From a virus: DNA of 64,000 nt. Positions 12 through 20,539 of this stretch are shown piece after piece; positions within the stretch are counted from its first letter, which is position 1; every line of letters begins with the position of its first letter. Location: positions 12,525 to 76,524 of the IMG/VR virus record IMGVR_UViG_3300042386_001406; one strand, written 5' to 3'. The translations under genes were made by a program, and so were the position numbers. A model generated the notes under the pieces. It was not told where the DNA came from, did not search any database, and saw nothing but the letters and a program-made list of their open reading frames with translations.

Positions 12-1229
12 ATGTTAATACCATTTGAATACTCTCAACAAGCATTTGGTGGTAAAGAAAGACGTATGTTAATTCCTAATCTAAGTGATAATAACGAACA
101 AAAAGAAAAAGTACTTAATTATTTAAGTAAACATAACATACCTGTTAATATTGAAGAAGATTTATTTACTATTAATTGGTGGAAACAAAGTTTAGAAGAA
201 ATTCAACTTGATGTCCCTACACCAGATGAAAAAGATGTTGATCCTGAACAACTAAAAAAAGGAATTGAAGTAGAAAAAGAACACACCAACGATGAAAAAA
301 CAGCTAAGAAAATAGCGTTAGCTCATTTAGGTGAAGATCCAAAATATTATTCTAAGTTAAAAAAAGCAGGTTTAGAAGAAACATTAACTGAACCACAAGA
401 TAAGACAGACAATATTATAGCTGATTTTATTGATTTTGCCGCTAATGCTCTTGACTTACAAAAAGTACCTAAAATTACTTTTAGTGATGATGAGAATTTA
501 GCTAAACAAATGCACGCGTTAGGTGCTTATCAACCTAAAACTGATGAATTATTAGTTGTTAAAGGATCAAGACTAACAGCAGATATTTTACGCACATTAG
601 CTCATGAGTTAGTACATCGTAAACAAGCTGAAATGGGTCCATTAGATAAAGAAGATGGTAAAACAGGTTCAGAAGTAGAAAATGAAGCTAATGCCGCCGC
701 TGGTGTATTACTAAGACAATTTGGTAAATACAGACCAGAAATATTTGAAGAAGCAGATGCGATGAAAGGTGATTATAAGATATACTGTGATATGGATGGT
801 GTGTTAGTTGATTTTGATAAAGGGTATGAAGAATTAACAGGTAAAAAAGCTAGTTTTGACACACCAAAAGAAGAATTTTGGGAACCAATTTCAAAAGCAG
901 GTGCAGCGTTTTGGATTAAATTACAATGGATGCCTGATGGAAAACAATTATGGAATTATATTAAACCATACAATCCAGATTTACTATCAGCTCCATCACG
1001 TGAAGAATCATCTAAAATAGGTAAATTTACTTGGGTGAAAAGAAACTTACCTGGTACTAAACTTATCTTACGTTCAGCTGATCGTAAACAAGAATTTGCA
1101 ACACCAAACTCTATCTTAATTGATGATAGAGCAGATAATATACAACGTTGGAAAGATGCGGGTGGTATAGGTATTCATCACACATCAGCTGCTGATACAA
1201 TACAACAATTGAAAGATTTAGGGCTATGA
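12..1229 (+). CDS. Modular protein (probably 5' truncated): small helical phage module, HExxH metallopeptidase-like domain, HAD 5'(3')-nucleotidase-like domain
   Basis: No in-frame stop before nt 12. Motifs GIEVEKEHT..AKKIALAHL.EDPKYY, TLAHELVH..E.EANA, and YCDMDGVLVDF..LIDDR. Confidence 0.7.
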   Translation: MLIPFEYSQQAFGGKERRMLIPNLSDNNEQKEKVLNYLSKHNIPVNIEEDLFTINWWKQSLEEIQLDVPTPDEKDVDPEQLKKGIEVEKEHTNDEKTAKKIALAHLGEDPKYYSKLKKAGLEETLTEPQDKTDNIIADFIDFAANALDLQKVPKITFSDDENLAKQMHALGAYQPKTDELLVVKGSRLTADILRTLAHELVHRKQAEMGPLDKEDGKTGSEVENEANAAAGVLLRQFGKYRPEIFEEADAMKGDYKIYCDMDGVLVDFDKGYEELTGKKASFDTPKEEFWEPISKAGAAFWIKLQWMPDGKQLWNYIKPYNPDLLSAPSREESSKIGKFTWVKRNLPGTKLILRSADRKQEFATPNSILIDDRADNIQRWKDAGGIGIHHTSAADTIQQLKDLGL

Positions 1230-1765
1230 TTAAATTAATAGACATATTAAAAGAAGAAATTAATTTAGAAAAATATGTTGAAGATTGGTTAAGTAAAGGA
1301 GGAATACATGATGACTCTAATATTAATAGAGCATTTACTATTAAACTAAAACAATTAGGTTACGAAAATTATGGAACTATATATCGAGTTTTATTTGTCA
1401 AAAAAGATAATAAAATATCCAATTTAAAATCTTATATTTGGGACAAATATAATGGAAAATATATATCTTTTTCTGAAACTTTAGAGGGAGCAAATAAATT
1501 TATGGACCTATTAATAAATGATGGTCTGCTTAAAAAAGGAGAAATACTTGTTGTTATAAAACAAAAATCTAATTATTATAATTTACATAAATGGGTAGAA
1601 GATAAAATAAAAGAATATGGAGGTCCTTGGCAATTTGCTGATAAAAAAGGTGTTTGGGTTGGAGGGTTGTATAGAGAAACTCAAAAAACAAAAGAAGTTT
1701 TATCAACATTAGATAATAATTTTGAAATAGTAAGACAATATTCTAAAAAAGGAAAAATGTTATGA
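1226..1765 (+). CDS. Hypothetical protein with MIKLIDILKE leader; possible ADP-ribosyltransferase fold
   Basis: ATGA overlap with the upstream gene. TIYRV, YISFS and KEVL resemble an R-S-E triad. Confidence 0.45.
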   Translation: MIKLIDILKEEINLEKYVEDWLSKGGIHDDSNINRAFTIKLKQLGYENYGTIYRVLFVKKDNKISNLKSYIWDKYNGKYISFSETLEGANKFMDLLINDGLLKKGEILVVIKQKSNYYNLHKWVEDKIKEYGGPWQFADKKGVWVGGLYRETQKTKEVLSTLDNNFEIVRQYSKKGKML

Positions 1766-2343
1766 ATGAATCAAATTTAAAAAAAGAGTTTTCAAAACGT
1801 GATGTACAAAGAATGAGAAATATAATCAGTGGTAATGCTAGTTCAGCCACTGGTATTCAAGTAGGTTATAGTAAACAATCTCAAGACTACCAAGAAGGAG
1901 ATGTGTGGGAAGAAAATGATAAACAATGGACCATTAAAAATGGCATCAAACAAACTGTTACTAAACATGATAAATTAAGACAGTTAGTTACTATGCCTTT
2001 AGCTTGTCCTGAATGTGATAAACCATTTAAAAATACTCCTGTAAATAAGAAAATGTGGGTTATTCATAAGATGTGTCGTGACTGTGTTATTGATATGGAG
2101 GCTAAAATTAGATTAGAAGGTAAGTGGGATGAGTATGAGCATAATATGATGAATGCTAATAAAAATGCTGATGTAGATGAGTTTGAAAAAGCATTTAATG
2201 AATTTGTAAAAACAAGTACTGATAAAAGTTCATTTATAACTGAGGCGGGTGATATAGAAACATGGAGTGGGGGTAAAATTAATGAAGAAGAAATAAAACA
2301 AGTCAAAGAATATATAAAAAAACTGCGCGAAACAGAAATATAA
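1762..2343 (+). CDS. Hypothetical phage protein with CxxC..CxxC zinc ribbon
   Basis: CPEC and CRDC pairs; ATGA-coupled ORF. Confidence 0.6.
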   Translation: MNESNLKKEFSKRDVQRMRNIISGNASSATGIQVGYSKQSQDYQEGDVWEENDKQWTIKNGIKQTVTKHDKLRQLVTMPLACPECDKPFKNTPVNKKMWVIHKMCRDCVIDMEAKIRLEGKWDEYEHNMMNANKNADVDEFEKAFNEFVKTSTDKSSFITEAGDIETWSGGKINEEEIKQVKEYIKKLRETEI

Positions 2344-2361
2344 ATATATTTATTTTCAGCA

Positions 2362-2673
2362 ATGGAAGCAATGGATAACATTTATACGGTCATTATAACA
2401 GCAATTACAGTTCTAGGTAGTGCTACAGCATTTCGATTTTATGAAAAGAAATCTATGCGTAAAGAACGTGATGAAGAATTTATTCGCCACGATTGTAAAG
2501 ATCGTATTGCTAAATTAGAAGCATTGCTTGTTGAATCTGCTCGTGAAAAAGATGAGTTACGTAAAATGGTATTACAGCTTACAAAAGAAGTAGCTGCGTT
2601 AAGTACTAAAGTTGAATTTTTTGAAAAAGGCGCGCCTATAGTATCTGTCAAATCTCGAAAAGCTACTAAATAA
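2362..2673 (+). CDS. Small membrane protein with coiled coil
   Basis: Hydrophobic IYTVIITAITVLGSATAF followed by a heptad-rich helix. Confidence 0.55.
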   Translation: MEAMDNIYTVIITAITVLGSATAFRFYEKKSMRKERDEEFIRHDCKDRIAKLEALLVESAREKDELRKMVLQLTKEVAALSTKVEFFEKGAPIVSVKSRKATK

Positions 2674-2727
2674 TCATTACCTATTATTGCCCATTAATAT
2701 ATTTATATAGGATAAAAACTATATAAG

Positions 2728-3303
2728 ATGCCATATACTCGTAAAGGTAATTGTGTTTACAAAGAAACTGGTAAGAAAATGGGCTGCTCTAAAGACACTA
2801 AGGCAGCTGAAAAATATATGCGTGCTTTATATGCCGCTGAAGCAGGTAATATCAAGGAAGGATATGATTTAGATACTATCAGCCCTGACCAACCTGAACT
2901 TGCTATAACTGTTGAATTGCCAAACCCTATACAGGTTATGGCTTCTTTTGTCTCTACATTAATGTCATCTCGTACACAAGCTCACATATTCCACTGGCGT
3001 TGTAAAGGCGTAGGTGCTGGATGGATGCATACAGCATTAGGTGAGTATTATGATGGTATTGTAGATATATTAGATAAATTAGTTGAGTCAACTCAAGGCC
3101 GCTATGGTTTATTAGAAGGATATAAATGTGATGGACAATTTATGGAAGATGTAACTAAAGCAATTCCATATTTTGAAGCATTATGTTTGTATGTTGAAAA
3201 AAATCGTGGTTCATTACCTCAAGATTCATATATTCAAAATCAAATAGATGAAATAGTTGAGTTAATTGAAACAACTAAATATAAATTAGTAAACTTACAG
3301 TAA
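2728..3303 (+). CDS. Ferritin/Dps-like four-helix protein fused to a short basic N-terminal module
   Basis: QAHIFHW..H.ALGEYYD..D.LVE..QG and IQNQIDEI..TKYKL pattern. Confidence 0.65.
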   Translation: MPYTRKGNCVYKETGKKMGCSKDTKAAEKYMRALYAAEAGNIKEGYDLDTISPDQPELAITVELPNPIQVMASFVSTLMSSRTQAHIFHWRCKGVGAGWMHTALGEYYDGIVDILDKLVESTQGRYGLLEGYKCDGQFMEDVTKAIPYFEALCLYVEKNRGSLPQDSYIQNQIDEIVELIETTKYKLVNLQ

Positions 3304-3950
3304 TGCGTATTCGTATAATTAAAGAAGCTATAGCAACTGATATAACTGATATAGTAAAAAATACTATTGGACTTAAAGCCACTGTTAAACGCTTTAAGAA
3401 TAATATATTAGTAGCTTCACCAGGTGGATTCTTCTCACCTAGCCGTTTACAAAATATGGCTGATGAATTGAATGATAGAATACCTGAACCCTGGTTAGAA
3501 AGTCCTGTAAGTGTAGGTACAGGTGGTGCTACTGAAGGTTTACTTATTATAAGATTGAATGATGAGGGTATGAAACATACCAATTTATTTGAAGCAGAAG
3601 AGGATTTTACACCAATTGAAGATCCAAAGGAACCAAAACCAGCAGCTAAACAATTTCAAATATTAGCTTCAATGATCACTAACACTAAAGTTAATGATCA
3701 AACTAATATATTATCAGCAATGAGAGCATTACCAGGTGTTACTATTGTTAACTCACAAGCAGCAATTCCAGGTTCAAATTCAGAAGGACAACTCCGCTAT
3801 AAAACAAATGTTGACATTAAAATTGATACTTCAGCACTCAGTGGTGATATAAAAACTGCTATTAAGAAAATAATTGAAGATATTAAGAAAATTGAAGGTG
3901 TAGTTGAGTTTAAAGTATTACCAAAAGCAAAAGAAACAACTCCATACTAA
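3303..3950 (+). CDS. Hypothetical two-module protein
   Basis: TAATG coupling; MRIRIIKE leader; internal LFE linker. Confidence 0.6.
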   Translation: MRIRIIKEAIATDITDIVKNTIGLKATVKRFKNNILVASPGGFFSPSRLQNMADELNDRIPEPWLESPVSVGTGGATEGLLIIRLNDEGMKHTNLFEAEEDFTPIEDPKEPKPAAKQFQILASMITNTKVNDQTNILSAMRALPGVTIVNSQAAIPGSNSEGQLRYKTNVDIKIDTSALSGDIKTAIKKIIEDIKKIEGVVEFKVLPKAKETTPY

Positions 3951-4603
3951 TGAATAAGATACAATTAAAGGAGCATATTGAAAAAATCATTAACTATGTA
4001 GGCCAAGAATACAATCATGGTCCTAAGTTAGTTATGAATGAATCTAAAGAACCAGTCTTTATTTCTGAAGGCTTATATTACCATATTGAAAATAACTTAC
4101 CACTAAACGAATCAATATATCGTCCTCAATCAGCAATGTTTTTAAAATTATTTGTTGAAGCAAGAAACTTATATGATTCTAAGCGTTTAGTATTATGTGA
4201 ATCAGATCAATATTATTTTGACAATACAGATATAGGTACATTTGGTGAGTATAATGGTATTAAAGTGCCACTAGACTTACCTCTGACCGAGGAATTTCTA
4301 ACAGAAGCATTAGAAGAAGAAAAAAAACAACCAGCATTAGGTAAACCTAAGCGTGGTGGTTCTAAAAAATTCTATGTGTATGTTAAAGATCCTAAAACCA
4401 AACGTATTAAAAAAGTATCATTTGGTATGGCAGGTGGTGGCTTAAGAGCCAAATTAAACAACCCAAAAGCTAGACAAGCGTTTTCTAAACGCCACAATTG
4501 TCCTCAAAAGAAAGACAAAACTAAAGCTTCATATTGGAGTTGTCGTTTACCTCGCTATGCTAAACTATTAGGATTTAAAACAACATTTAGTGGATTTTGG
4601 TAA
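3950..4603 (+). CDS. Hypothetical protein with basic C-terminal phage module
   Basis: KKFYVYVK..KKVSFG..F..RHNC..ASYWSCR module after an LTEALEE linker. Confidence 0.6.
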   Translation: MNKIQLKEHIEKIINYVGQEYNHGPKLVMNESKEPVFISEGLYYHIENNLPLNESIYRPQSAMFLKLFVEARNLYDSKRLVLCESDQYYFDNTDIGTFGEYNGIKVPLDLPLTEEFLTEALEEEKKQPALGKPKRGGSKKFYVYVKDPKTKRIKKVSFGMAGGGLRAKLNNPKARQAFSKRHNCPQKKDKTKASYWSCRLPRYAKLLGFKTTFSGFW

Positions 4604-5220
4604 TGATTAGTCTAATTGACATATTACATGAAATGTATCCACCATATAAAGCAAATATGGTATCAAAAGTTAGATATAAAGCATCTGATGTTTGGACTAA
4701 TGACCAAGAATTAGCTGTAAAAAGAGGATACTTGGAAAGTGATGAACCTGAAAAAGGCACAGGTAAAAAACCTAAAGGATCTAGTCGTCGTTTATACACA
4801 GATGAAGATCCAAAAGATACAGTTAAAATTAAATTCAAAACCGCTCAAGATGTTAAAGATACATTATCAAAAAAGACATTTAAAGCAAAACCACATGCTC
4901 GTAAGTCACAAATTATTAATGTAATCCATCAGCGTGTCAGAGCAGCTTATAATAGAGCTAAAGATCCAGATGTTAAATCTAGATTAAAACGTGCTTTGGA
5001 TTATATTGAAAAGCGTAAAGAAGCATCTAAAGAAAAAACTAAAAGTTTAAATAAAGAAACATCAGATCCACAATCAGGTAAAGCAGCACCATATGGTTCA
5101 GGATATGCTCCTATACAACAGAATGAAGACATATTAAATGAAAAATGCTGGCCTGGATATACTAAAAAAGGAATGAAAACAATGTTTGGAAAAAAATACC
5201 CTAATTGTGTAAAAAAATGA
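4603..5220 (+). CDS. Modular hypothetical protein (MISLIDILHE leader; C-terminal CWPGY..PNCVK peptide)
   Basis: ATG at 4603 coupled to the upstream TAA; modules separated by xxE sites. Confidence 0.6.
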   Translation: MISLIDILHEMYPPYKANMVSKVRYKASDVWTNDQELAVKRGYLESDEPEKGTGKKPKGSSRRLYTDEDPKDTVKIKFKTAQDVKDTLSKKTFKAKPHARKSQIINVIHQRVRAAYNRAKDPDVKSRLKRALDYIEKRKEASKEKTKSLNKETSDPQSGKAAPYGSGYAPIQQNEDILNEKCWPGYTKKGMKTMFGKKYPNCVKK

Positions 5221-5534
5221 TAAAACTAACTCAACTACTAACTGAAGTAAAAGAAACATTTGAAAGTTTTGCCACTATTCGTGGTAAAGGTGCTGCTAAA
5301 ATTGCCGCCACTGCTGAAGAAAAAGGTGGATTATCTCTATTAACATGGCATCATTTTAAAGTAAAAGCTCCGTACTATAAAAAAGCAACTGAGGGTAAAT
5401 TTGATAAAGAAGTTGCTAAAAAAGAATTTGAACAAACATATAAAAAGATATCATTAAACATGACTCAAACTGAATTTCAACGTGAAGTTGGTCGTTTAGA
5501 GGTATTAGGTGAACTGTTAATAGAAAATAAATAA
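5217..5534 (+). CDS. Hypothetical protein (MIKLTQLLTE leader)
   Basis: ATGA coupling at 5217; leader shared with neighbours. Confidence 0.6.
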   Translation: MIKLTQLLTEVKETFESFATIRGKGAAKIAATAEEKGGLSLLTWHHFKVKAPYYKKATEGKFDKEVAKKEFEQTYKKISLNMTQTEFQREVGRLEVLGELLIENK

Positions 5535-5536
5535 TA

Positions 5537-5800
5537 ATGAGTCAACCTTATGTAGACTTAGTTGTGACAGATGAATATGTGATTAGGGAATTTGATAAAA
5601 ACATTGACCCTATAGAGCTAATGTGGCATCGAGATGATGAAAACAGGATGGTTGAAGCTATAGAACCAACAGATTGGCTAGTACAACTAGACAACCAGTT
5701 ACCAATGTCTATGACCCAACCAATATTTATACCACGTCATATGTGGCATAGAACTATAAAAGGCACAGGTAAATTAAAGATAAAAATATATAAATCATGA
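5537..5800 (+). CDS. Small cupin-like protein
   Basis: WHRD.E..IFIP...WHR cupin-type His motifs. Confidence 0.55.
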   Translation: MSQPYVDLVVTDEYVIREFDKNIDPIELMWHRDDENRMVEAIEPTDWLVQLDNQLPMSMTQPIFIPRHMWHRTIKGTGKLKIKIYKS

Positions 5801-6237
5801 AAAAATCTGAATTAAAACAATTAATCAGAGAAGCAATCGAAGAAGTAAAACCTAAAGTTGAAGAAGATGTAATCAACGAAGGATTTGCTCCTGAAACTGA
5901 TGAAGTTGGCTCATTTTGGGTGGTTGAAAAACCATCTACTAGCGCTACTTTAGATGACATTTGCTTTGAATGCGAAAATGTAATGTACTTTGCTCGTCAA
6001 ATTGCTGGTGGTTTAAAACCAGAAGATATCAAAGGTGTATTCACTAAAGAAGCTAAAGCTAAAAAGTTAGCTGAAAAATTACTTAAAGCTCGTGACACTA
6101 AAAAAGAAGAAGTAAAACAAGCAGCTGAAGCTTATAAAAAAATGAAAGAAGAAACTTTAGCAAAAGTACAAGAGTACATGAAAAATAAGAAAGCTACTAA
6201 ACAAGTAGTTGACGAGTTAAAAGACGAAGTTAAGTAA
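5797..6237 (+). CDS. Hypothetical protein (MKKSELKQLIREAIEE leader)
   Basis: ATGA coupling; helical Lys/Glu-rich C-terminus. Confidence 0.6.
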   Translation: MKKSELKQLIREAIEEVKPKVEEDVINEGFAPETDEVGSFWVVEKPSTSATLDDICFECENVMYFARQIAGGLKPEDIKGVFTKEAKAKKLAEKLLKARDTKKEEVKQAAEAYKKMKEETLAKVQEYMKNKKATKQVVDELKDEVK

Positions 6238-6611
6238 TGAAGTTAACAGACATATTACTTGAAACTCTGCTTGAAAAGAAAAAAGACAGATGTCATCGTA
6301 TCGCTGATAGGCGTTATGATAAACCATCTGCTTATAAGTCAGGTGCTATAGTGAGATGTCGCCAAGGTAAAATTTGGAAAGATCTTAAAGAAGATGAATC
6401 ATTACGTAAATGGTTTGGTCGCAGAGGCGCAGCTGGTAAAGAAGGTGGATGGGTTGATTGTAACACATGTCGCAAAGTAGATGGTAAAACCAAATGTAAA
6501 CCTTGTGGTAGAAAAGAAGGTGAAAAACGAGCTAAATACCCATCATGTCGACCAACACCTGCTGGATGTAAGAAAAAAGGAAAAGGTAAAACTTGGGGAA
6601 AAACAAAATAA
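6237..6611 (+). CDS. Basic Cys-rich two-module hypothetical protein (MKLTDILLE leader)
   Basis: PSAYKSGAIVRCR and LRKWF..WVDC..CRP modules split by LKE. Confidence 0.6.
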   Translation: MKLTDILLETLLEKKKDRCHRIADRRYDKPSAYKSGAIVRCRQGKIWKDLKEDESLRKWFGRRGAAGKEGGWVDCNTCRKVDGKTKCKPCGRKEGEKRAKYPSCRPTPAGCKKKGKGKTWGKTK

Positions 6612-6613
6612 AT

Positions 6614-7072
6614 ATGCAAGACAATTTTAACATACATGGTTGGCGTTTAAATCAAGCCATTAAAGAAGTAGAAGAAGCTACATTCACAAACAAACATGAT
6701 GACAATCCTAAATTAAAAGGTGGACAGAAAAAATTACCTGATGAATTACAAGCGGGAATCTTAAAGAAAGAAGACACAACAGGATACTCTACTGATTATA
6801 AAAAAGGATATAGAGATGGATATCAAGATGGAAAAGAAGGTAAATTTGGTAAACAATTCGCTGTAAAAGAAGGTGAAGACCATGAAGTAGCAATGGCTAA
6901 ATCTAGTCTACAATCTATTATGAGTTCAGCCTCAAAATTAATGGTAATGTTAGGTGATGAAGAGCGTAACATACCAGGATGGATTCAAGATCATATTACT
7001 AATGCTGAAAACTATATTGATCAAGCTGCTCAAGGCTTTCATGAATTAGAAAATAACAATGAAGAAGATTAA
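6614..7072 (+). CDS. Modular hypothetical protein (MQDNFNI leader)
   Basis: ATG at 6614 just after the upstream stop; DHEVAMAK..IPGWIQDHIT.AENYI module. Confidence 0.6.
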   Translation: MQDNFNIHGWRLNQAIKEVEEATFTNKHDDNPKLKGGQKKLPDELQAGILKKEDTTGYSTDYKKGYRDGYQDGKEGKFGKQFAVKEGEDHEVAMAKSSLQSIMSSASKLMVMLGDEERNIPGWIQDHITNAENYIDQAAQGFHELENNNEED

Positions 7073-8555
7073 AATCATAAAATCAAGACCAATAAAGGAA
7101 GAAGAAGAAGTAATTGATCAGGTACCTCAAGACACAGCTCCTGAGCAACCTGAGATTACTTATGAATCTAATCCTTTAGAGTTTATACTTCAAAAATATC
7201 CAACATTAACTGAAACATTAGTTAAATTATTAACTGATGATTTCAGAAACTATATTATTGGTGTTTATATAATGGCTCCAAAGCCAACTATATTCAAGAT
7301 TGTTTTACATAACAATCGCTCATTTTATTTAACATATATGGGTAAGTGTTATGAAGCTAAAGTAAGTGGTAAGAAATTCTGGCTATTAAAAGTAAGTGAA
7401 CTTGAAACAGCCACCATTGAAATAGCTAACTTATTAATGCTAGGTACTCCTCCATCAGTTAAAGGACCTGAAGCTGAAATGACAGCGGCTCCTGAGGAAA
7501 CACCAACAGAAGAAGCACCAGCAGAAGAAACTCCACCAGCAGAAGAAGAAGCACCTGAAGAATTAGCTGAAGATGTTATTAAAGAAGATCTTAACACAAC
7601 TAAAAAAGAATTAACTAAGTTAGGGTATAAAGATGAAGATATTGTTCCTATAACTAAAAGTAAAATTAAGTTATTAGTACCTGCTAAAGAAAGAATGAAT
7701 GTTATTAATACTTTAGTTGACAAGTTAAAATATACTTGGGATAAAGATATTAAAGGTTCTTCTATTGGTGGAGTAATAGCTAAAGATGGTGAAACAGTAA
7801 TTATACCAAAACCAAAAGAAAAACAAGGTGGTGGTAGTGCTGGTTTAGGAAATGAATCATTTTTAGCAAATAAAATTAAATCTACTGTTGAAGAAGTAGG
7901 TGGTCCTATCACTGTTGTTGTTAAAGGCGACAATGGTAAAAGTATAAGATTTAATGGTGTTACTGACGCTGAAGAAGCAGGACGTGACACAGCTGGAAAT
8001 AAAAAATCAGACATCAGATTATTAGCTGGGAGTAAAGTTGTAGGTAACTTATCATTAAAGCAAAAAAATGCTTCAATGTGGGAAAGTGCTGACAAGCGTT
8101 ATAAAGACTTGATGATTAAACTTGTAGAAAAATTACTTAAAAAACCATATAAAAATTTAGGTTTAACTAAAACTGATAAAAAAGATATTTACAGATTATA
8201 TAATCCATCTACTGGTCAAGAATATAGTGGTATTATCATAACAGATTTAGATAATAAAGATATGGCTTCTATTGTATTTGGATCTGATAAACCACAAACA
8301 GTAGTAGTTAAAGAAACATTTGATGAAAGTGATTTTACATTAAACAGTAAAGTATTAACAATCAGTGTTGATAATTTAGCTACAAGTTTAGAAGATATTG
8401 TTGGAACAAAATATGAACCAATATTAGTAGTAAGACATGATTCAACTAGAACAGCTACAGCTGGTTTAAGACCAATTGTATACACTAAAGAATCTGTTTA
8501 CAAAGGAGACAAAGTATCTGGTAACAGAATAGAATTATCTTATAATAAAATTTAA
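7059..8555 (+). CDS. Two-domain protein; C-terminal domain PD-(D/E)xK nuclease-like
   Basis: Acidic Pro/Glu linker, then GNE..KKSDI..LSLKQ. Confidence 0.45.
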   Translation: MKKIKIIKSRPIKEEEEVIDQVPQDTAPEQPEITYESNPLEFILQKYPTLTETLVKLLTDDFRNYIIGVYIMAPKPTIFKIVLHNNRSFYLTYMGKCYEAKVSGKKFWLLKVSELETATIEIANLLMLGTPPSVKGPEAEMTAAPEETPTEEAPAEETPPAEEEAPEELAEDVIKEDLNTTKKELTKLGYKDEDIVPITKSKIKLLVPAKERMNVINTLVDKLKYTWDKDIKGSSIGGVIAKDGETVIIPKPKEKQGGGSAGLGNESFLANKIKSTVEEVGGPITVVVKGDNGKSIRFNGVTDAEEAGRDTAGNKKSDIRLLAGSKVVGNLSLKQKNASMWESADKRYKDLMIKLVEKLLKKPYKNLGLTKTDKKDIYRLYNPSTGQEYSGIIITDLDNKDMASIVFGSDKPQTVVVKETFDESDFTLNSKVLTISVDNLATSLEDIVGTKYEPILVVRHDSTRTATAGLRPIVYTKESVYKGDKVSGNRIELSYNKI

Positions 8556-8651: not shown

Positions 8652-8680
8652 GCCTGCGCAAAATAAAGATGTTATATTTA
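8649..8680 (+). promoter_or_regulatory. Bacteroidota-type promoter TTTG-N20-TATATTTA
   Basis: Near match to the -33 TTTG / -7 TAnnTTTG architecture; identical spacing at 47216, 52588 and 55936. Confidence 0.6.
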
Positions 8681-8686
8681 AACCTA

Positions 8687-9193
8687 ATGAATATATTTTA
8701 CATAGACTCTGATCCAACAATTGCAGCTAAGGAAATGGTTGATGACCATATTCGTAAAATGCAAATTGAATCAGCTCAAATGTTATGTACAACATTTTGG
8801 CATTATGGTTTTGAAGCACCATATAAAAAAGCTCATTACAATCATCCATCAACTAAATGGGTTCGTGAATCAATTCATCATTTTAATTGGTTATTGACTC
8901 ATGGTTTGGTTATTTGTGATGAATTTGCTTTACGTTATGGTAAACAACATGCAACTAAAAATGTATTATTGTGGATTAGAGACAATAAAGATATGTTGTA
9001 TGGTAAAATACCTACAACACCATTTGTACCTCCACCTCAATGTATGCCTGATCAATATAAGAAAGAAGATACAATAGAAGCCTATAGAAATTTTTATATT
9101 CAAGATAAGATTGGAATTAAACAACTAAACTATAATAAATTAAATAACATACCAAAATGGATAAGCGAATCGTCATTGTTGGAGCAGGCGTAG
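8687..9193 (+). CDS. Pyrimidine-dimer DNA glycosylase/endonuclease V-like protein
   Basis: MNIFY.D..P..AA...D.H..KM..ESAQML, H.NHPS..W, PPQCMPD..AYR.FY. Start moved to ATG 8687. Confidence 0.7.
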   Translation: MNIFYIDSDPTIAAKEMVDDHIRKMQIESAQMLCTTFWHYGFEAPYKKAHYNHPSTKWVRESIHHFNWLLTHGLVICDEFALRYGKQHATKNVLLWIRDNKDMLYGKIPTTPFVPPPQCMPDQYKKEDTIEAYRNFYIQDKIGIKQLNYNKLNNIPKWISESSLLEQA

Positions 9194-11339: not shown

Positions 11340-12308
11340 ATGGCAGACAATTTTGATCTTAGAAAATTTATTACTGAAGCGAAACTTAAAATTAAAGTTC
11401 CTGTAAAGGAAATGGCGCGTATCGCTAAAGAAAAATATAAACTCAATCCAGACTTTCCACAAATTGAAGATAGAATTGCTAATCCTAGCAACTTTAAAAC
11501 AGATAGAAAACAACAAGTAGTTAATTACTTTGTTAAAAAAGCAAAAGACGAGAGTATTGATCCAATGGAAGTTGAATTGCTAAAAAGTGATATTGAAAAA
11601 AATTCAGCTCCTGGTATTAACTGGTCTTTCACTCCTGATATTCGTAATCAACTTTTAAAAGCCACAACTGTTAAACCAGAAAAAGCAGCTGATGAAGAAC
11701 CAGGTGAAGGTGATATATTTGGTGGCGCTGATGATGCTGAAGATTTGTTTGTAGGTAAAGGTAAACTTAAATCTAAAAAAGCAAAACCAGAAACAGGGGA
11801 TGAAGAGCCAGGTGAAACAGATATCACTAAAATTAAAGCACCAAAATCAACAGCTGCTGGTTCTAAAGCTGGTGAGTGGTTTGTAGATAACAGTGACTTA
11901 ATTGATCGTATTATTAAACAATATGCTCAATCAAATATTAAAACAGGACGCGCTGTTAAAGAAGCAGAAGATGGTGGTTTATCAAGTGCTGATTTCAAAG
12001 CAGCTCAAGCTAAATCTAAAGAAGCAGCTAAAGCTGGTTTACCTGACTTAGTAAAACGTCTTGTAGACAAAATTGAAGTTTTAAAAGATGAAGATTATAA
12101 TGCTTATGTTAAAGTATTAAATGATCTTGACAAATATAAATTCGGAGCTACTAATACTAAAGGAGTAATGAAAATGATCCTTAAATCATTAGGCGAAGAT
12201 AAACTTCCAGCTATTGGATCTAAGAGAAAAGATAGTGAAGAAGATGAATTTAAAAAATTAGGTATTGATGATACAGACATTGAAATTGATGGTGAAGAGG
12301 AACTCTAA
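11340..12308 (+). CDS. Hypothetical protein (MADNFDLRKFITE leader); probable head-internal protein
   Basis: Leader shared with the 18157 ORF; highly charged. Confidence 0.6.
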   Translation: MADNFDLRKFITEAKLKIKVPVKEMARIAKEKYKLNPDFPQIEDRIANPSNFKTDRKQQVVNYFVKKAKDESIDPMEVELLKSDIEKNSAPGINWSFTPDIRNQLLKATTVKPEKAADEEPGEGDIFGGADDAEDLFVGKGKLKSKKAKPETGDEEPGETDITKIKAPKSTAAGSKAGEWFVDNSDLIDRIIKQYAQSNIKTGRAVKEAEDGGLSSADFKAAQAKSKEAAKAGLPDLVKRLVDKIEVLKDEDYNAYVKVLNDLDKYKFGATNTKGVMKMILKSLGEDKLPAIGSKRKDSEEDEFKKLGIDDTDIEIDGEEEL

Positions 12309-13087: not shown

Positions 13088-13089
13088 AT

Positions 13090-13097
13090 ATATTTAT
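13090..13097 (+). promoter_or_regulatory. ATATTTAT putative late promoter (representative of 23 intergenic copies)
   Basis: Same 8-mer precedes most structural genes; positions are listed in the findings. Confidence 0.7.
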
Positions 13098-13111
13098 ATA
13101 CAAACAGTTGC

Positions 13112-14704: not shown

Positions 14705-14734
14705 ATAAATATTTATAACATATACTAAGATATT

Positions 14735-16624: not shown

Positions 16625-16660
16625 TATACATATTTATAATTAGTATCATTATACTAAACT

Positions 16661-17515
16661 ATGCGTATAAAACATAACAAATTTCGCAACACTGGTGTAT
16701 TATTTGAGCTATTAGTGCGTCAAATAGCATCAGACACATTGGCGAATACTGATTCTAAGGCGGTAAAGATTGTGAAAAAATATTTTCATAGTAATGAAAT
16801 AGCAAAAGAGCATAAACTCTATCATACTATTTTAACAGCGCCACGCTTAAGTGAAGGTAAAGCTGAAGCATTAGTTAATACTACTGTTGACTTAGCTAAA
16901 AAATTAAATAAAGAAACATTACTTAAGGAAAAATACAACTTAATTAAAGAAATTAAGAAGCATTATAATCTTGAAAGTTTCTTTAAAGCTAAAGTTAACA
17001 ACTATAAAGCTCTAGCTGCTGCTTACACATTATTTGAAGCCGCTATGGATAATAAGTTTGTTGAGCCTAAACAATTAGTGCTTAATAAACTTACTGTAAT
17101 GGAACATATCACTAAGAAAACCTTAGTTGAAAATAAAGAAAACGAAGTTGAACAAGTATTAGCTAAAGAAGATAAAAATGTACGTTTATTAGCATATAAA
17201 ATGTTAATTGAGAAGTTCAACACTAAATACTCAACATTAAGTACACGTCAAAAGTTAGTACTTAAAGAATTCATTAACAATATTTCTAATCCTGAACACC
17301 TTAAAACATATATCAACGAGAACCTTAATAAGGTTAAAACTGAGTTAACTGATTTAGTTAAACAAGTTAATGACAAAACAACTGAAATTAAGTTAAACGA
17401 AGTTATAACGTTGATAAAGCCAATATCTAACAAGTCGTCTGTAAAAGATGAACATTTAGTAGCATTACTTCAATATCAGCAACTAGCTGAGGAAATTAAG
17501 AAAGTAAATGGATAA
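16661..17515 (+). CDS. Conserved head-module hypothetical protein
   Basis: Helical ORF directly after the portal with its own ATATTTAT. Confidence 0.65.
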   Translation: MRIKHNKFRNTGVLFELLVRQIASDTLANTDSKAVKIVKKYFHSNEIAKEHKLYHTILTAPRLSEGKAEALVNTTVDLAKKLNKETLLKEKYNLIKEIKKHYNLESFFKAKVNNYKALAAAYTLFEAAMDNKFVEPKQLVLNKLTVMEHITKKTLVENKENEVEQVLAKEDKNVRLLAYKMLIEKFNTKYSTLSTRQKLVLKEFINNISNPEHLKTYINENLNKVKTELTDLVKQVNDKTTEIKLNEVITLIKPISNKSSVKDEHLVALLQYQQLAEEIKKVNG

Positions 17516-18155
17516 GAAAAAATTAGGAATTAAACTTAAAAAAGAAACATCGGCCACAGGAACCGGTGCTTCTGTAACTCCAGGTGTTGGTATGGGCGTA
17601 GCTACAAAATATGCTTTTAAGAAAAAAGTAAAAGAAGATGCCCCACAACTAGCAGCTGGTAAAGTAAAAGATAACTATGCTGTGTCTCATTTTGGTTTTA
17701 CTAATGCTCCATCTAAACCAAATCGTTCTTCAAAAGCAATTGACTATAAAGAACTATGGGAAGCAGGTGAATATGAGTCTTTAGCAGATATGTTAGCACA
17801 ATTAGGTGCTGAAGAAGATGCTGTTAAAGTACTTGTAAAAGCAGTTGAAATGGGAGCTTTAAAACCAACTGATGCTATTGAAATTGTTAAAAAAACAGTT
17901 AGCTTAAATGAAGGATACGCTCAGTTTAGAAATGAAACTAAAATGCGTTCTAAACCAGATCAGTTCCATCAAGCAGTTAAACAAATAAAAAGAAAAATGA
18001 ACGAAATCAATCGCATATTTGAATACGTTGATCGTTTAAAAAGTGAATTAAGTGAAGGTGAAGATTTAAAATATAAAAAATATACTGAAAATGCATTCCA
18101 ACAAATTAAAGAGAGTGCAAAATCATTATTTTTAAAATCTACAAAACTAAAATAA
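17508..18155 (+). CDS. Modular hypothetical head-region protein
   Basis: Segments split by VKE, LWE, LNE. Confidence 0.6.
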   Translation: MDKKKLGIKLKKETSATGTGASVTPGVGMGVATKYAFKKKVKEDAPQLAAGKVKDNYAVSHFGFTNAPSKPNRSSKAIDYKELWEAGEYESLADMLAQLGAEEDAVKVLVKAVEMGALKPTDAIEIVKKTVSLNEGYAQFRNETKMRSKPDQFHQAVKQIKRKMNEINRIFEYVDRLKSELSEGEDLKYKKYTENAFQQIKESAKSLFLKSTKLK

Positions 18156-18156
18156 A

Positions 18157-19014
18157 ATGGCAGATAATTTTGACATGAAACAATTCCTAGTTGAAAACAA
18201 ATTAGGTGCTTATTCTAAATTAAGAGAAAATCCAGAGCAACAATATTATGTTCATGATGAAGAAGGATTAGAAGAACCAATTGGTCCTTTCTCATTAGAA
18301 CAAGCTAAAGCTGAAGTAATTAAACAAGGTGAAGGCTGGAAATTGATTGATGCTGAAACAGCTAAAGAAATTTGGTCACATTTAGGTGAAGGTGAAGCTG
18401 CTTATGAATATGAGAAAGGTAAAGCCGCTGGTGAAAAAGAAGAAAAAGAAAAATTAGCTAAAGAAGATCTAGGACAAGATCGTACTGATGCTGAAGCAGA
18501 AAAAATGATGGATTTCTTAGCTGAGAAAAATGTAGAAGAAGTAAGCCAAAATACATTCATGGTTGTTGATAGAATTGAAGAAATTGTTAGTAATTTAGCT
18601 CGCAATATCTCAACTAACTCAAATATTCCAACACAAGATAAAATTGGTTTAGTACAAGCTCTTAAAGAATTAAAAGAGTATGTTGAAGATTTAGGTGTTG
18701 AACTTGAAATGAATGAAACTAAAAAACCAGTAAAAGAAGGTGAAGATATTTTCGCTGATATTGAAGATGATCTTATGCATGGAACTGATAGTAAGAGAGA
18801 TCAAATTGAATACTTACAAGAAGTTATTGACTGGTGTCAAAATAAAATAGAGAAAATTAAAGACACTAATATGGATGAAGCTATGGGTGGTAAAAATCCA
18901 GAAGGTGATAAATTAGTATTACGCTTTTTAAAAGGTGTAGCTAAAAAATTTGACTACCCTGTAGCACAAGCTGCTATATTTGTTAAAGATACAATTAAAA
19001 GTTTAGGATATTAA
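18157..19014 (+). CDS. Modular acidic protein (MADNFDMKQFLVE leader)
   Basis: Repeated xxE-delimited segments. Confidence 0.6.
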   Translation: MADNFDMKQFLVENKLGAYSKLRENPEQQYYVHDEEGLEEPIGPFSLEQAKAEVIKQGEGWKLIDAETAKEIWSHLGEGEAAYEYEKGKAAGEKEEKEKLAKEDLGQDRTDAEAEKMMDFLAEKNVEEVSQNTFMVVDRIEEIVSNLARNISTNSNIPTQDKIGLVQALKELKEYVEDLGVELEMNETKKPVKEGEDIFADIEDDLMHGTDSKRDQIEYLQEVIDWCQNKIEKIKDTNMDEAMGGKNPEGDKLVLRFLKGVAKKFDYPVAQAAIFVKDTIKSLGY

Positions 19015-19016
19015 TT

Positions 19017-19142
19017 ATGGCAAAAGCAATAAGAGGCGAAAGCCGCAAAGTTACATTTGGTAAACGTAAAGGCGGTAACGCTAAAAAATCATATAACAAA
19101 CATAGCCCTCGCCCAAAAGCATATCGTGGTCAGGGCCGTTAA
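19017..19142 (+). CDS. 41-aa basic protein ending YRGQGR (not in the ORF track)
   Basis: Translated by hand: MAKAIRGESRKVTFGKRKGGNAKKSYNKHSPRPKAYRGQGR; fills the intergenic gap. Confidence 0.75.
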   Translation: MAKAIRGESRKVTFGKRKGGNAKKSYNKHSPRPKAYRGQGR

Positions 19143-19153
19143 TATTTATTAGT

Positions 19154-20539
19154 ATGAAAAAACCAATCAACGAAATAGAAAGACTTAAACTTATCGCTGG
19201 TTTAATTAACGAAATTAATTATAATGACTCAGTATACGGCGTTAAAAGAACAACATTAACTGAGGGTAAAAAGAAAAAAGAAGTTAAAGAATTATCTATA
19301 GACGTTGCTAACCCATACGAATACCGTATGGGTCTTCAATATGAACTAGAGCAAATGGATGACTATAGTAATGAATCTTTAGAAAAAGCTAAATCAATTG
19401 TATTGAAGAACTTAGCTAAAGATGTTAACTTCTATACTACTTTACTTAACCAAGATCAATCACCTTATAAGTTTGAAGCTCCTGAAACAGACAAACCAGG
19501 TATGCAAGCTAAAGCTGATGGTTATTTAAAGAAAGAATTAAAGAAAGATGCTAAAGCTAATGTACAAGATACATTAGGTAAAAAAGAAGCAGGTTCTAAA
19601 AAACCTAAAGGTGTTAAAGTAATGCCTGATAAAGGTGTAACTGGCTCTGAAAAAACCATTAAAGAGAATCTTATTAATGAGGTAATATTAAAAGTATATC
19701 ATTATGATCCATCATCAGGTGATTTAGAAGATGTGGATGTTGAATATTTTAGTTCTGAAGAAGAAGCTAAAAAAGCTGCTTTAGCTCATCATTGGCAAGT
19801 AGCTTTTGATAATGGAGATACAGATCTTAGTAAAGAAGATTTTATATCTCAAACTAACTTTGATGACTTTGAACCATATAACAACTACGATTATAAAATA
19901 GTATCTGATAAAGGTAATATTAAAGAAGGATTAGAAGAAGCTTCAAAAGATCCACATGACAAAGCTAAGGTAATGAAAGTGGATGGTAAATTCGAAGTTT
20001 ATACAACTCAAGATGGTGAAATAAAAACATTCGATAAAGAAGCTGATGCTAAAGCATTTGCTGATAAATATAACAGTGAGAATGTTAAAGAAGGTTCATT
20101 CATGGGTGGTGTTGATTTAGGTGCTTCATTTGATAAAATGAAAGGACAAATGAATGCTGAAGATGAATTTAATTCATTAATGTCTAAGTATGACTGGTAT
20201 TATGAAATGAGCGATGATCCACGTGCTTATGATCGTGGAACAGCTATGAATAGTAAATTAAAGATGTTAGGTAAGCAAATTGGTGTTGATAAAGCTATTG
20301 AATTATTCAACTCTAAAGCTCCATCTGATAGAAAAATAACATCTTCTTTCTTTATGGAAGGTGAAGATAAGCATTCTAAAATTAAAGAAGCATTAAAAGC
20401 TGCTTTAAAGAAAGCTTTAAAAGAAGAAGATCCAGCTATGGCTAGAATAGAAAAAGACGAAGAAGCCGCTGAAAAAGCTTTAGCACAAATATTAACAAAG
20501 AAAGCAGCTGTATTAGCTAAACCAGGAACCCAAGGATAA
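19154..20539 (+). CDS. Modular head-region protein
   Basis: INEIERLKLIAGL leader resembles the scaffold C-terminus RRMQQLAGI; many IKE/VKE linkers. Confidence 0.65.
   Translation: MKKPINEIERLKLIAGLINEINYNDSVYGVKRTTLTEGKKKKEVKELSIDVANPYEYRMGLQYELEQMDDYSNESLEKAKSIVLKNLAKDVNFYTTLLNQDQSPYKFEAPETDKPGMQAKADGYLKKELKKDAKANVQDTLGKKEAGSKKPKGVKVMPDKGVTGSEKTIKENLINEVILKVYHYDPSSGDLEDVDVEYFSSEEEAKKAALAHHWQVAFDNGDTDLSKEDFISQTNFDDFEPYNNYDYKIVSDKGNIKEGLEEASKDPHDKAKVMKVDGKFEVYTTQDGEIKTFDKEADAKAFADKYNSENVKEGSFMGGVDLGASFDKMKGQMNAEDEFNSLMSKYDWYYEMSDDPRAYDRGTAMNSKLKMLGKQIGVDKAIELFNSKAPSDRKITSSFFMEGEDKHSKIKEALKAALKKALKEEDPAMARIEKDEEAAEKALAQILTKKAAVLAKPGTQG

Follow-up and report, generated by a model that had tools for sequence, protein, structure and literature searches.

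Leader-tagged chains of protein modules joined at head-protease-type motifs: candidate capsid cargo of an uncultured T4-type phage

The head region of an uncultured T4-type phage of aquatic Bacteroidota encodes a series of proteins built as strings of unrelated modules with Glu-ending motifs at their junctions. The question raised by this locus is whether such proteins are cut apart inside the capsid by the head protease of the phage and injected with its DNA, as a sequence-only reading had proposed. The analyzed stretch of DNA (hereafter, the window) comprised 64 kb of a 76.5-kb contig, and the nearest isolate was Flavobacterium phage immuto (56% identity in the major capsid protein). The protease named in that reading was assigned to family S77, and its His, Ser and Asp residues matched those of the T4 gp21 structure 5JBL in the alignment (Table 1). 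The enzyme carries V-L-I-E at residue 8, and T4 gp21 itself has L-I-E at residue 9 (PMC9026906). S77 prohead proteases of the T4 type cut at hydrophobic-x-Glu (h-x-E), and the phage encodes one such enzyme. Every motif listed earlier was found in its ORF, at both residue and nucleotide level, and the polyprotein reading as a whole is partly supported.

The defining feature of the predicted cargo set, absent from the sequence-only reading, is a short N-terminal leader. The leaders of about 16 genes of the window, some lying 5' of the terminase gene and others between portal and protease, fall into at least three families, all of them ending in h-x-E: class A (consensus M-I-K-L-x-D-I-L-x-E), class B (M-A-D-N-F-x-L-K-x-F-[IL]-x-E) and class C (core M-Q-x-L-A-G-I-I-x-E). 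Among 988 proteins, these classes were seen 33, 29 and 21 times vs. about 5-6, 0.3-0.6 and 0.03 expected, respectively. As with the T4 capsid-targeting sequence (CTS), the leaders precede many unrelated cargoes (more than 40 families), and the same classes are present in immuto. The P1 residue of the class A leader was Glu in 80 cases and Asp in one, and that of class C was Glu in 46 of 49; in T4, Asp at P1 stops processing (PMC9026906). Most leader codons showed synonymous variation, which indicates constraint chiefly at the peptide level, and codons 6 and 7 were biased (GAC, and ATA in 62 of 63). In complete relatives (163-183 kb) the class A leader occurred 1-6 times each; every copy lay on the coding strand, and the reversed control gave 0. 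Several leader genes of these genomes lay distant from the head genes. About ten genes of the range considered earlier (1762, 2362, 2728, 5537, 8669, 9157, 10542, 10790, 12268 and 12642, named as elsewhere by start position) had no leader; these, together with TerL and portal, are probably not cargo, and to that extent the earlier reading, which included 2728, was overstated.

The core of class C leaders, R-M-Q-Q-L-A-G-I, is also found at the C-terminus of the scaffold protein, in nearly every homologue with an available C-terminus, including that of immuto. Among 2224 proteins, the motif was located at 63 N-termini, 26 C-termini and 6 internal positions. Since the class C leader copies the scaffold tail, it presumably binds the partner of the scaffold. 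In the capsid protein, four N-terminal sites were conserved among relatives (S-L-I-E9, L-L-E35, M-L-E50 and V-V-E59). The first of these is the QSLIE singled out earlier; its conservation stands, but alignment to mature T4 gp23 places the T4-homologous maturation cut near residues 50-59, closer to L-V-V-E59 than to the site at residue 9.

Table 1. Features of the window and their positions (nt).
Feature	Position	Strand	Details
661-aa protein, 3' 1229 nt	1..1229	+	ORF in contig
DUF5661 cassette	201-380	+	flanked by S-L-E-E (189-200) and G-L-E-E (369-380)
I-F-E-E joint	738-752	+	precedes 5'(3')-deoxyribonucleotidase-fold module (753-1226)
179-aa protein	1226..1765	+	class A leader 1226-1255, ending I-L-K-E
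215-aa protein	3303..3950	+	M-R-I-R-I-I-K-E leader, ~90-aa inserted module, N-L-F-E (3582-3593), E-D-F-T-P-I-E module
217-aa protein	3950..4603	+	short leader-like start, L-K-E at residue 8; V-M-N-E, N-module, A-L-E-E (4307-4318), basic Cys-containing C-module (PHROG 7595)
205-aa protein	4603..5220	+	class A leader 4603-4632; G-Y-L-E (4726-4737) before basic module; I-L-N-E (5128-5142) before 25-aa Cys-containing peptide
105-aa protein	5217..5534	+	class A leader 5217-5246, kept in L016 and L057 orthologs
146-aa protein	5797..6237	+	leader 5797-5832, ending Q-L-I-R-E
124-aa basic two-module protein	6237..6611	+	class A leader 6237-6263; D-L-K-E (6381-6392), then E-S-L-x-K-W-F Cys-rich module
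152-aa protein	6614..7072	+	class B-like leader 6614-6667, ending A-I-K-E
498-aa two-module protein	7059..8555	+	leader-like start ending P-I-K-E (7086-7100); N-module; Pro/Glu-rich linker with E-L-A-E and V-I-K-E (7560-7586); 320-aa C-module
322-aa protein	11340..12308	+	class B leader 11340-11378, ending F-I-T-E
215-aa protein, T4 gp67/gp68 position	17508..18155	+	short basic start ending L-K-K-E (17535-17546), then conserved Gly/Thr-rich motif
285-aa modular protein	18157..19014	+	class B leader 18157-18195, ending F-L-V-E
461-aa modular protein adjoining protease	19154..20539	+	class C leader 19154-19213; conserved part up to T-I-K-E (19655-19666), then variable modules with joints N-I-K-E/G-L-E-E (19916-19939), N-V-K-E (20081-20092) and F-F-M-E (20348-20359)
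Prohead protease, family S77 (T4 gp21 type)	20539..21168	+	Pfam PF03420, E 2.5e-30
Acidic scaffold protein	21362..22699	+	last 12 residues (22661-22696) with R-M-Q-Q-L-A-G-I motif
gp23-type major capsid protein, N-terminal 59 residues	22729..22905	+	comparison with relatives

The ORF formerly placed at position 12 is the window-truncated part of a 661-aa protein of five modules, whose real start lies 756 nt upstream of the window, in the contig, with the class A leader M-I-D-L-N-T-I-L-N-E. The leader is followed by a module of NadD/NMNAT fold (Foldseek), a module of about 70 aa, the DUF5661 cassette, a HExxH module and, after I-F-E-E, the domain earlier called HAD, which Foldseek assigned to the 5'(3')-deoxyribonucleotidase fold. 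The DUF5661 and DUF5856 module calls were confirmed by Pfam, while the match of the HExxH module to DUF6782 (putative metallopeptidase) fell below the Pfam cut-off (E 0.003-0.006). This module was the most conserved of its protein family, with a conserved Glu-rich helix downstream. The three joints described for this ORF (S-L-E-E, G-L-E-E and I-F-E-E) proved to be module boundaries in relatives; the DUF5661 cassette was variably present in orthologs, its absence leaving a single L-E-E and its presence giving two. In the AF2 model (pLDDT 79), each of the five low-confidence linkers (residues 8-17, 119-124, 305-325, 375-385 and 504-508) held at least one h-x-E site, and together they contained 9 of the 17 sites in 12.6% of the residues (2.1 expected, binomial p 7e-5). 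Glu residues had a hydrophobic P3 in 9 of 14 cases in linkers vs. 8 of 41 elsewhere (Fisher p 0.005). Motif position was non-random with respect to domain boundaries in the 661-aa protein; the test was weak in protein 19154, where 8 of 13 sites lay in low-confidence stretches of a poor model (pLDDT 57; p 0.09). The nucleotidase module was a plain leaderless stand-alone gene in three relatives, which means that the presence of a module does not imply packaging; as the NMNAT/HExxH pair also lacked a leader in seven relatives, these enzymes can work unpackaged.

The description of the proteins as chains whose modules are swapped, dropped and inserted was supported across 160 related loci, where modules standing alone behind a leader in one phage sit within longer proteins elsewhere. 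The leader of gene 3303 was found directly on the E-D-F-T-P-I-E module in L012, L097 and L111, and the insert of the L082 homologue ends in L-L-K-E. A 100-aa insert parts the N- and C-modules of protein 3950 in L071, and L-D-E, F-S-E or L-V-E occupy that boundary in other relatives. In L097, L130 and L084 the basic module of protein 4603 immediately follows a leader, and in L036 it follows N-L-K-E. The C-terminal peptide of this protein is replaced by another module behind L-I-L-E in L084_1420. Likewise, the E-S-L-x-K-W-F module of protein 6237 directly follows leaders in L036_3249, L045_1976 and L139_1963, and carries [LIM]-x-E at most 4 residues ahead in 29 of 29 distinct upstream contexts. 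For protein 7059, over 10 relatives have the N-module on its own, while in L088, L142 and L150 the C-module (PHROG 12709) forms an independent protein headed by a class A-like leader; for the earlier nuclease-like label, the single lead was a weak one from a language model (restriction endonuclease). Relatives of protein 17508 showed 20 distinct contexts upstream of the Gly/Thr-rich motif; each had Glu one residue ahead of it, and three placed it behind extensions of 110 to 150 aa. The C-terminal modules of protein 18157 are common to differently led proteins in L006, L012, L015 and L018. Protein 1226 had no Pfam or PHROG family and no clear language-model relative. The earlier-named Y-L-E and I-L-N-E (4603), A-L-E-E (3950) and I-K-E (19154) were module boundaries in relatives as well. 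Moreover, near-identical phages differ by whole cassettes whose ends fall precisely on duplicated joints (L-E-E or I-K-E-G-L-E), and inserted cassettes are flanked by short repeats encoding the joint. In L002, 99% identical at 19154, a cassette of ~100 aa was inserted at I-K-E-G-L-E, bounded by two such joints and flanked by perfect 20-nt direct repeats. By these comparisons, the joints double as sites of cassette gain, loss and exchange.

The 16 leader-bearing proteins contained 118 h-x-E motifs vs. 111 ± 8.5 after shuffling (z 0.8), a density of about one per 35 residues; at such a chance-level total, motif lists like those first offered as evidence prove nothing by themselves. It is the placement of the motifs, rather than their number, that carries the signal. 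An h-x-E motif was located at the homology boundary in 79 of 115 joints vs. 27 expected, a value reached by 0 of 2000 random draws, in a set whose contexts are not fully independent and in which 36 boundaries had no h-x-E. Among Glu residues, P3 was hydrophobic in 51% of those at joints vs. 29% elsewhere (Fisher p 7e-9). Enrichment was 2.9-fold for h-x-E and 1.3-fold for Glu without hydrophobic P3, and neither h-x-Asp (1.0-fold) nor h-x-Lys (0.9-fold) was enriched at the 115 boundaries. Leu accounted for 26% of P3 residues at joints vs. 10.5%, and the Leu/Ile preference agrees with gp21. The site floats 0-4 residues ahead of the module while the remaining linker varies. The basic G-K-P module had a motif within 12 residues ahead in just 8 of 30 contexts. 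Most copies of h-x-E within folded domains are presumably uncut.

Being leader-tagged and joined at the cutting motif of the protease, the chains are probably packaged, separated into their parts and delivered along with the DNA. The reading to which we give somewhat better than an even chance is head loading in the style of T4, carried further to include module chains. The leader would dock the cargo in the prohead core during assembly, class C leaders doing so via their copy of the scaffold C-terminal tail, and the protease, active within the prohead, would take off the leader and, less certainly, also cut the h-x-E sites of inter-module linkers. A single leader could in this way bring in several unrelated modules, which would finish as separate proteins (an NMNAT-like enzyme, a deoxyribonucleotidase, DUF5661, a zincin-like domain, basic Cys-rich peptides and possibly a nuclease), some of which would exit with the DNA at infection.

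Cutting might instead be restricted to the leaders, in the style of T4 internal proteins, with the multi-module proteins remaining whole and the linker motifs arising as a by-product of acidic, helix-capping composition. The chance-level motif frequency, the enrichment of Glu of any kind at joints (100 vs. 62), the non-significant AF2 test on protein 19154 and the cutting of known T4 cargo just near its ends (PMC9026906) are in line with this; composition would nevertheless have to account for the specificity of enrichment for h-x-E over other Glu, h-x-Asp and h-x-Lys, for the excess of Leu at P3 and for a site that floats while the linker changes, and we regard it as rather unlikely. Less probable still is that the joint motifs are recombination scars, i.e. 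old leader ends left by gene fusion or cassette moves, cut or not, each module having once been a separate leader-bearing gene and recombination acting at short repeats or where the leader sequence stops on its 3' side. The direct repeat around the L002 cassette and the duplicated L-E-E joints around DUF5661 fit such scars, most modules are known somewhere as stand-alone leader-bearing genes, and the bias at leader codons 6 and 7 hints at DNA-level copying. However, sequence upstream of internal joints is not leader-like, P3 and P1 alone are kept while P2 and flanks vary, and one module is served by L-K-E, L-N-E, I-D-E and M-A-E joints, which a neutral scar would not explain; in addition, scars would not preclude cleavage.

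The shared N-termini might also not be capsid addresses at all, serving expression or another localisation (a translation-start region or an oligomerisation helix) and ending in Glu by coincidence. Some nucleotide-level bias within the leader and the distance of several leader genes from head genes in complete relatives would suit that; the synonymous variation at most codons, the 80:1 ratio of Glu to Asp at the last position, the identity of the class C core with the scaffold tail, the clustering of the genes beside and inside the head-assembly block and the close formal match to the T4 tag make it improbable. We find it hardest to credit that the 661-aa protein is a polyvalent protein (Iyer et al. 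2017) processed by its own zincin-like HExxH domain instead of the head protease. Zincin domains are a hub of phage polyvalent proteins (PMC5512222), and the conservation of the HExxH module, its downstream Glu-rich helix and the weak DUF6782 match are suggestive, yet that match is under the cut-off, the same joint motif appears in 3303, 3950, 4603, 6237, 7059, 18157 and 19154 without a peptidase domain, and the 661-aa protein bears the same leader as other cargo.

Compared with known systems, head loading of module chains would be closest to T4 IPI, IPII, IPIII and Alt, which carry a CTS and are processed by gp21 (Mullaney & Black 1996; PMC9026906, PMC3012670). In both cases an S77 protease is present, N-terminal tags of 10 to 20 residues ending in hydrophobic-x-Glu precede unrelated, fast-changing cargo, the cargo genes adjoin the head-assembly block or are part of it, and protease and capsid protein bear sites of the same type. 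The 10-residue tag of IPII and IPIII ends in F-I-A-E, which the F-I-T-E of leader 11340 resembles. In contrast to T4, tags and cargo here have no sequence homology to those of T4, at least three tag families occur in one genome, one copying the scaffold C-terminal tail, and the predicted enzymes belong to nucleotide and NAD metabolism. T4 cargo is not described as including long multi-module chains whose joints bear protease-type sites, and the multiple cuts documented in T4 and giant phages destroy scaffold or propeptide regions instead of releasing folded enzymes (PMC9026906, PMC10052503). Polyvalent proteins likewise string unrelated effector-type domains, shuffled among relatives and predicted to travel with DNA and be cut (Iyer, Burroughs, Anand, de Souza, Aravind 2017, PMC5512222), and the 661-aa protein shares the HExxH domain. 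Processing in that model falls to embedded zincin (or assemblin-like) peptidases, with no shared address tag described, whereas most chains here have no peptidase, their joints fit a separate head protease and they are smaller (120-660 aa). In phiKZ, 201phi2-1 and SPN3US, a gp21-related protease also cuts after Glu in many head and ejection proteins, several times each (PMC10052503, PMC5694885). The giant-phage motif is, however, Ala/Ser/Gly-x-Glu, as opposed to Leu, Ile, Val or Met at P3 here; the multiple cuts fragment long N-terminal propeptides, one mature C-terminal part being kept, and a shared short tag or module swapping at the sites is not reported. In P22 scaffold C-terminal fusions and encapsulin cargo-loading peptides, a short peptide that binds the interior of an HK97-fold shell brings cargo in, acting at the C-terminus and staying uncut. 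The class C leaders resemble these in bearing the scaffold's own terminal motif.

The same few starting residues recurred at the N-termini of many genes in the window (bases 12525-76524 of the 76.5-kb virus contig, ~32% G+C). The sequence-only reading had described the head-region genes as chains of unrelated modules, and such chains were indeed found, but the short leaders shared at their N-termini had been overlooked. Three leader classes were distinguished, with consensus M-I-K-L-x-D-I-L-x-E (class A), consensus M-A-D-N-F-x-L-K-x-F-[IL]-x-E (class B) and core M-Q-x-L-A-G-I-I-x-E (class C), in addition to the forms M-R-I-R-I-I-K-E and M-K-K-S-E-L-K-Q-L-I-R-E. Over 81 loci of related phages anchored on the terminase gene, 33 class A, 29 class B and 21 class C leaders were counted (approximately 5, 0.3 and 0.03, respectively, in shuffled N-termini), distributed over more than 40 unrelated families of leader-bearing (cargo) proteins. 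The final residue of class A was Glu in 80 cases and Asp in one, and that of class C was Glu in 46 of 49, with a background Glu:Asp ratio of 1.2; in T4, Asp in place of this Glu blocks processing (PMC9026906). Synonymous codons differed at most class A positions, indicating that the peptide is the conserved entity. Among class A leaders from the window and its relatives, the Ile at position 7 was nevertheless encoded by ATA in 62 of 63 cases (genome share 33%), and 25 of 47 Asp codons at position 6 were GAC (19% genome-wide). This is a nucleotide-level bias in addition to the peptide constraint and may stem from leaders being copied by recombination. In complete relatives, class A leaders were mostly grouped in the ~20 kb preceding the head genes, with a few elsewhere. 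The corresponding DNA pattern was present in at least 120 stretches across IMG/VR, a count that comes with no chance expectation and says little about breadth. In one relative, residues 85-96 of a 211-aa ORF form a complete class A-like leader that starts with Val instead of Met and has no stop codon ahead; either translation begins internally at this GTG or the leader is embedded in a chain.

The head-assembly genes were arranged in the order portal, core genes, protease, scaffold and major capsid protein (see table). TerL and portal were ordinary, and about ten genes in the region covered by the sequence-only reading lacked a leader. The nearest isolate was Flavobacterium phage vB_FspM_immuto (capsid identity 55.6%), followed by Microcystis phage Mel-JY01 and Rhodothermus phage RM378, while complete IMG/VR relatives measured 163-183 kb and had terminal repeats. 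Immuto, whose host is Flavobacterium sp. LMO8, also has leader-bearing genes of these classes, one of them encoding a modular protein of 841 aa. The gene proposed earlier as the protease was correctly identified: it belongs to the S77 family, its catalytic His, Ser and Asp are in place in an alignment with the solved T4 gp21 structure (5JBL), and it adjoins the scaffold and capsid genes, as in the T4-type loading system. Close to its N-terminal end it has an L-I-E site, a feature also of T4 gp21 (PMC9026906). The capsid site S-L-I-E at residue 9, taken earlier as the start of the capsid, is conserved, but it is one of four conserved sites within the first 60 residues, and alignment with mature T4 gp23 placed the homologous maturation cut near the last of them, V-V-E59.

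Coordinates of the features discussed (window positions unless a locus is named; L282 is the contig of the window, in contig coordinates, and L107 a locus of a related phage)
Feature	Position	Remarks
Large terminase (TerL)	13112-14704	T4-type head block
gp20-type portal	14735-16624	T4-type head block
S77 prohead protease	20539-21168	PF03420, E 2.5e-30
Scaffold, very acidic	21362-22699	T4-type head block
gp23-type major capsid protein	22729-24396	T4-type head block
Class A leaders used for codon counts	1226-1255, 4603-4632, 5217-5246, 6237-6263	
Class C leader motif	19154-19213	
Last 12 residues of scaffold	22661-22696	match class C leader motif
211-aa ORF with internal leader	L107:5958-6593	
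SegE-type GIY-YIG homing endonuclease	L282:4114-4542	PF19835, E 4e-27
1092-aa outer-membrane beta-barrel protein	-6120..-2842 (L282:6404-9682)	full-length
Pyrimidine-dimer-glycosylase (denV-like) match	8669-9193	PF03013, E 7e-4, below cut-off
Flavoprotein	9157-10503	Pyr_redox_2-like N-terminus, no leader
AAA_28 (NadR-kinase-like) P-loop protein	10790-11311	no leader
Three paralogous genes, ~210-240 aa	36418-37053, 39685-40398, 40417-41121	
1319-aa collagen-repeat protein	41459-45418	Pfam Collagen, E 3e-82

In order to compare module arrangements, the set was enlarged by 80 loci, with the flavoprotein gene as anchor, to a total of 160 loci with 2224 distinct proteins. The class C motif was located in the first 25 residues of 63 of these proteins, at the C-terminus of 26 (scaffolds) and internally in six; in nearly all relatives, among them immuto, the scaffold ends in a sequence identical to the core. 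Each of the six internal copies, complete in six proteins of relatives (loci L107, L110, L116, L132 and L155), was flanked by L-N-E and I-T-E sites, as if it were a second address tag inside a chain.

Joints were defined as boundaries of modules that immediately follow a leader in one phage but form an internal part of a larger protein in a second phage. Only leader-bearing ORFs with a closed 5' end were considered as stand-alone forms, since a first list had been swamped by locus-end ORFs and internal Met starts; merging of similar contexts left 115 joints. With positions anchored on the start of homology, the Glu of a hydrophobic-x-Glu (h-x-E) site was located between -5 and +3 in 79 of the 115 joints; random placement within these proteins would give 27.0, and 79 was not reached in any of 2000 draws. 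Anchoring on the first hydrophobic-hydrophobic-x-Glu of the leader instead resulted in a broad peak (-3 to +5), two sites being present in many leaders. Neither h-x-Asp (21 vs. 22) nor h-x-Lys (30 vs. 33) was enriched at the 115 joints, and Glu without a hydrophobic residue at P3 was slightly enriched (60 vs. 47). Given a Glu, P3 was hydrophobic in 51% of cases at joints vs. 29% elsewhere (p 7e-9; joint p-values are optimistic because contexts share descent), and Leu occupied P3 in 26% vs. 10.5%. Sites at joints therefore exceeded the expectation from Glu content, contrary to the outcome that the sequence-only reading had named as refuting it. All the motifs it listed exist; h-x-E is, however, a very common tripeptide, so that its presence near junctions by eye is not evidence, and motif frequency was dropped as an argument, the count in 16 leader-bearing proteins not being above that of shuffled sequence (118 vs. 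111 ± 8.5).

Individual modules showed the same placement. The E-S-L-x-K-W-F module (ORF 6237, named by its window coordinate) was preceded by [LIM]-x-E within four residues in all 29 upstream contexts, the linker otherwise differing among them. The nucleotidase module followed I-F-E(E) in the window, M-L-A-E or K-L-N-E with other partners, and a leader of its own in locus L103 and in immuto gene 183. ORF 3303 corresponded to a protein of loci L012 and L097 with a module of ~90 aa added between the Glu of the leader and a new L-F-E site. Most cargo modules had no Pfam or PHROGs match; language-model look-alikes gave no ADP-ribosyltransferase signal for ORF 1226, and for the C-terminal module of ORF 7059 only a sub-threshold lead to HinP1I/MspI-type endonucleases.

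The gene named earlier as ORF 12 is cut by the window edge: on the contig, it starts 756 nt upstream and encodes 661 aa. Four unrelated domains are combined in this protein, namely a NadD/NMNAT-type nucleotidyltransferase fold in the first module (Foldseek), DUF5661 mid-chain (Pfam), an HExxH module and a 5'(3')-deoxyribonucleotidase fold in the last module (Foldseek), in architectures that vary among relatives. In the structure predicted from an alignment of 20 relatives (mean pLDDT 79), five stretches had pLDDT below 50 (residues 8-17, 119-124, 305-325, 375-385 and 504-508), each of them holding at least one h-x-E site. These linkers, padded by three residues (12.6% of the chain), contained 9 of the 17 sites (2.1 expected, p 7e-5), and P3 was hydrophobic for 9 of 14 Glu in linkers vs. 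8 of 41 elsewhere (p 0.005). For ORF 19154, sites were located a few residues from most domain edges and 8 of 13 fell in low-confidence stretches (p 0.09), in a poor model (pLDDT 57); the prediction was discarded as a sharp domain test on account of this low confidence.

Taken together, these sequence patterns and models somewhat favor a loading mechanism in which leaders would act as an address to the prohead core and would be removed by the S77 protease, which would also cut the joints, so that one leader could load several modules. The leader step, considered on sequence, is quite probable, whereas for internal cuts at joints the sequence and structural patterns leave the balance about even. 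The candidate module set would comprise a NAD-salvage enzyme, a dNMP nucleotidase, DNA-binding basic peptides and a possible nuclease. A leader function unrelated to the capsid seems very unlikely in view of the tail shared by class C leaders and scaffolds. The nucleotidase lacked a leader in three relatives, as did the NMNAT/HExxH pair in seven, suggesting that these modules are useful also when unpackaged. Cleavage of the leader only, with chains staying intact, was judged unlikely. Limits to the proposed cuts at joints are that the motif was missing from 36 of the 115 joints and that the basic G-K-P module was preceded by it within 12 residues in only 8 of 30 contexts. The earlier polyprotein idea is partly supported, by the module swaps and site placement at joints; motif frequency does not add to it, and the ORF 19154 result (p 0.09) is weak.

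Joints could also be recombination scars, a reading compatible with cleavage and in itself rather improbable. Two further cases of module placement bear on this reading as well as on the proposed cuts. The DUF5661 cassette, found in four orthologs of the 661-aa protein but missing from three (70-86% identity), sits between two L-E-E joints in the former, and a single L-E-E is left in the latter; locus L002, whose version of ORF 19154 is 99% identical to that of the window, carries an additional cassette of ~100 aa at I-K-E-G-L-E, bounded by a perfect 20-nt direct repeat. The lowest probability, a very small one, was given to a reading in which the HExxH domain would process the 661-aa protein of which it is part, along the lines put forward for polyvalent proteins (PMC5512222). 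An HExxH motif is present; the module scored 16-17 bits against the putative metallopeptidase family DUF6782 (Pfam cut-off 27), and no module of this type was found in the other modular proteins of the window.

Regarding known systems, the closest to the proposed loading of tagged chains is the T4 CTS/gp21 system, with which the protease family, the form of the tag and the variability of the cargo are shared, although cargo and tag sequences differ; chains of folded modules with protease-site joints have not been described for T4 (PMC9026906, PMC3012670). T4 IPII and IPIII start with a 10-residue tag ending in F-I-A-E, so that, judged by sequence, the leaders would formally be the same device; the resemblance is in form only, and none of the leader-bearing proteins had a Pfam or PHROG match to T4 IPI, IPII, IPIII or Alt. 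In giant phages (phiKZ/SPN3US), many head proteins are cut several times, mainly destroying propeptides (PMC10052503); the motif there is A/S/G-x-E (A-x-E in SPN3US; PMC10052503), while P3 was Leu, Ile, Val or Met at the leaders and joints described here. Polyvalent proteins (Iyer et al. 2017) resemble the proposed chains in the idea of delivery as multi-domain proteins and in their shuffled architectures, but depend on embedded peptidases and lack an address tag, in contrast to the shared tags of the window's chains (PMC5512222). Literature searches retrieved no virion proteome for immuto-like phages or any relative, and no previous description of protease-jointed cargo chains.

More tentatively, the sequence and model data would fit a prohead protease that is a true polyprotein-processing enzyme in a widespread aquatic T4-type clade, where a chain of interchangeable effector modules behind one removable tag would be cut apart in the capsid for delivery together with the DNA. 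One tag family would have been copied from the coat-binding tail of the scaffold, and joints would double as recombination points of a plug-in cargo library. If so, capsid loading by removable tags would not be a peculiarity of T-even coliphages, and environmental phages would use it generally and in a greatly expanded form, and phage head proteases would gain a role of the eukaryotic-virus type, with several proteins obtained from one chain. Tags and joints would then allow packaged and injected proteins of uncultured phages to be predicted from sequence only, these proteins being candidate early counter-defence factors (e.g. the NMNAT-like enzyme against NAD-depleting defences), and would suggest natural parts for putting foreign proteins into capsids.

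Several neighboring genes were also recorded. The flavoprotein (conserved) and AAA_28 genes occupy a central place among the cargo genes of almost every relative and, along with the NMNAT-like module, hint at a NAD-related theme. The weak denV-like match falls among leader-bearing genes; T4 denV directly adjoins ipII and ipIII. Upstream of the window, the SegE-type gene adjoins primase-like and PD-(D/E)XK genes, and the 1092-aa protein, TonB-dependent-receptor-like (signal peptide, Pfam CarboxypepD_reg and OMP_b-brl_4), is encoded between a PD-(D/E)XK nuclease gene and leader-bearing genes; its gene may be auxiliary or a chimera of the assembly. The collagen-repeat protein carries an S74 intramolecular chaperone domain at its C-terminus and probably serves as a tail fibre, and its gene accounts for the local G+C peak (46%). 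The three paralogs share the N-terminal motif G-P-x-I-x-T-D-G-L-V-L ... N-S-Y-P-G-S-G-T-T and resemble a set of receptor-binding or fibre-tip proteins that undergo swapping.
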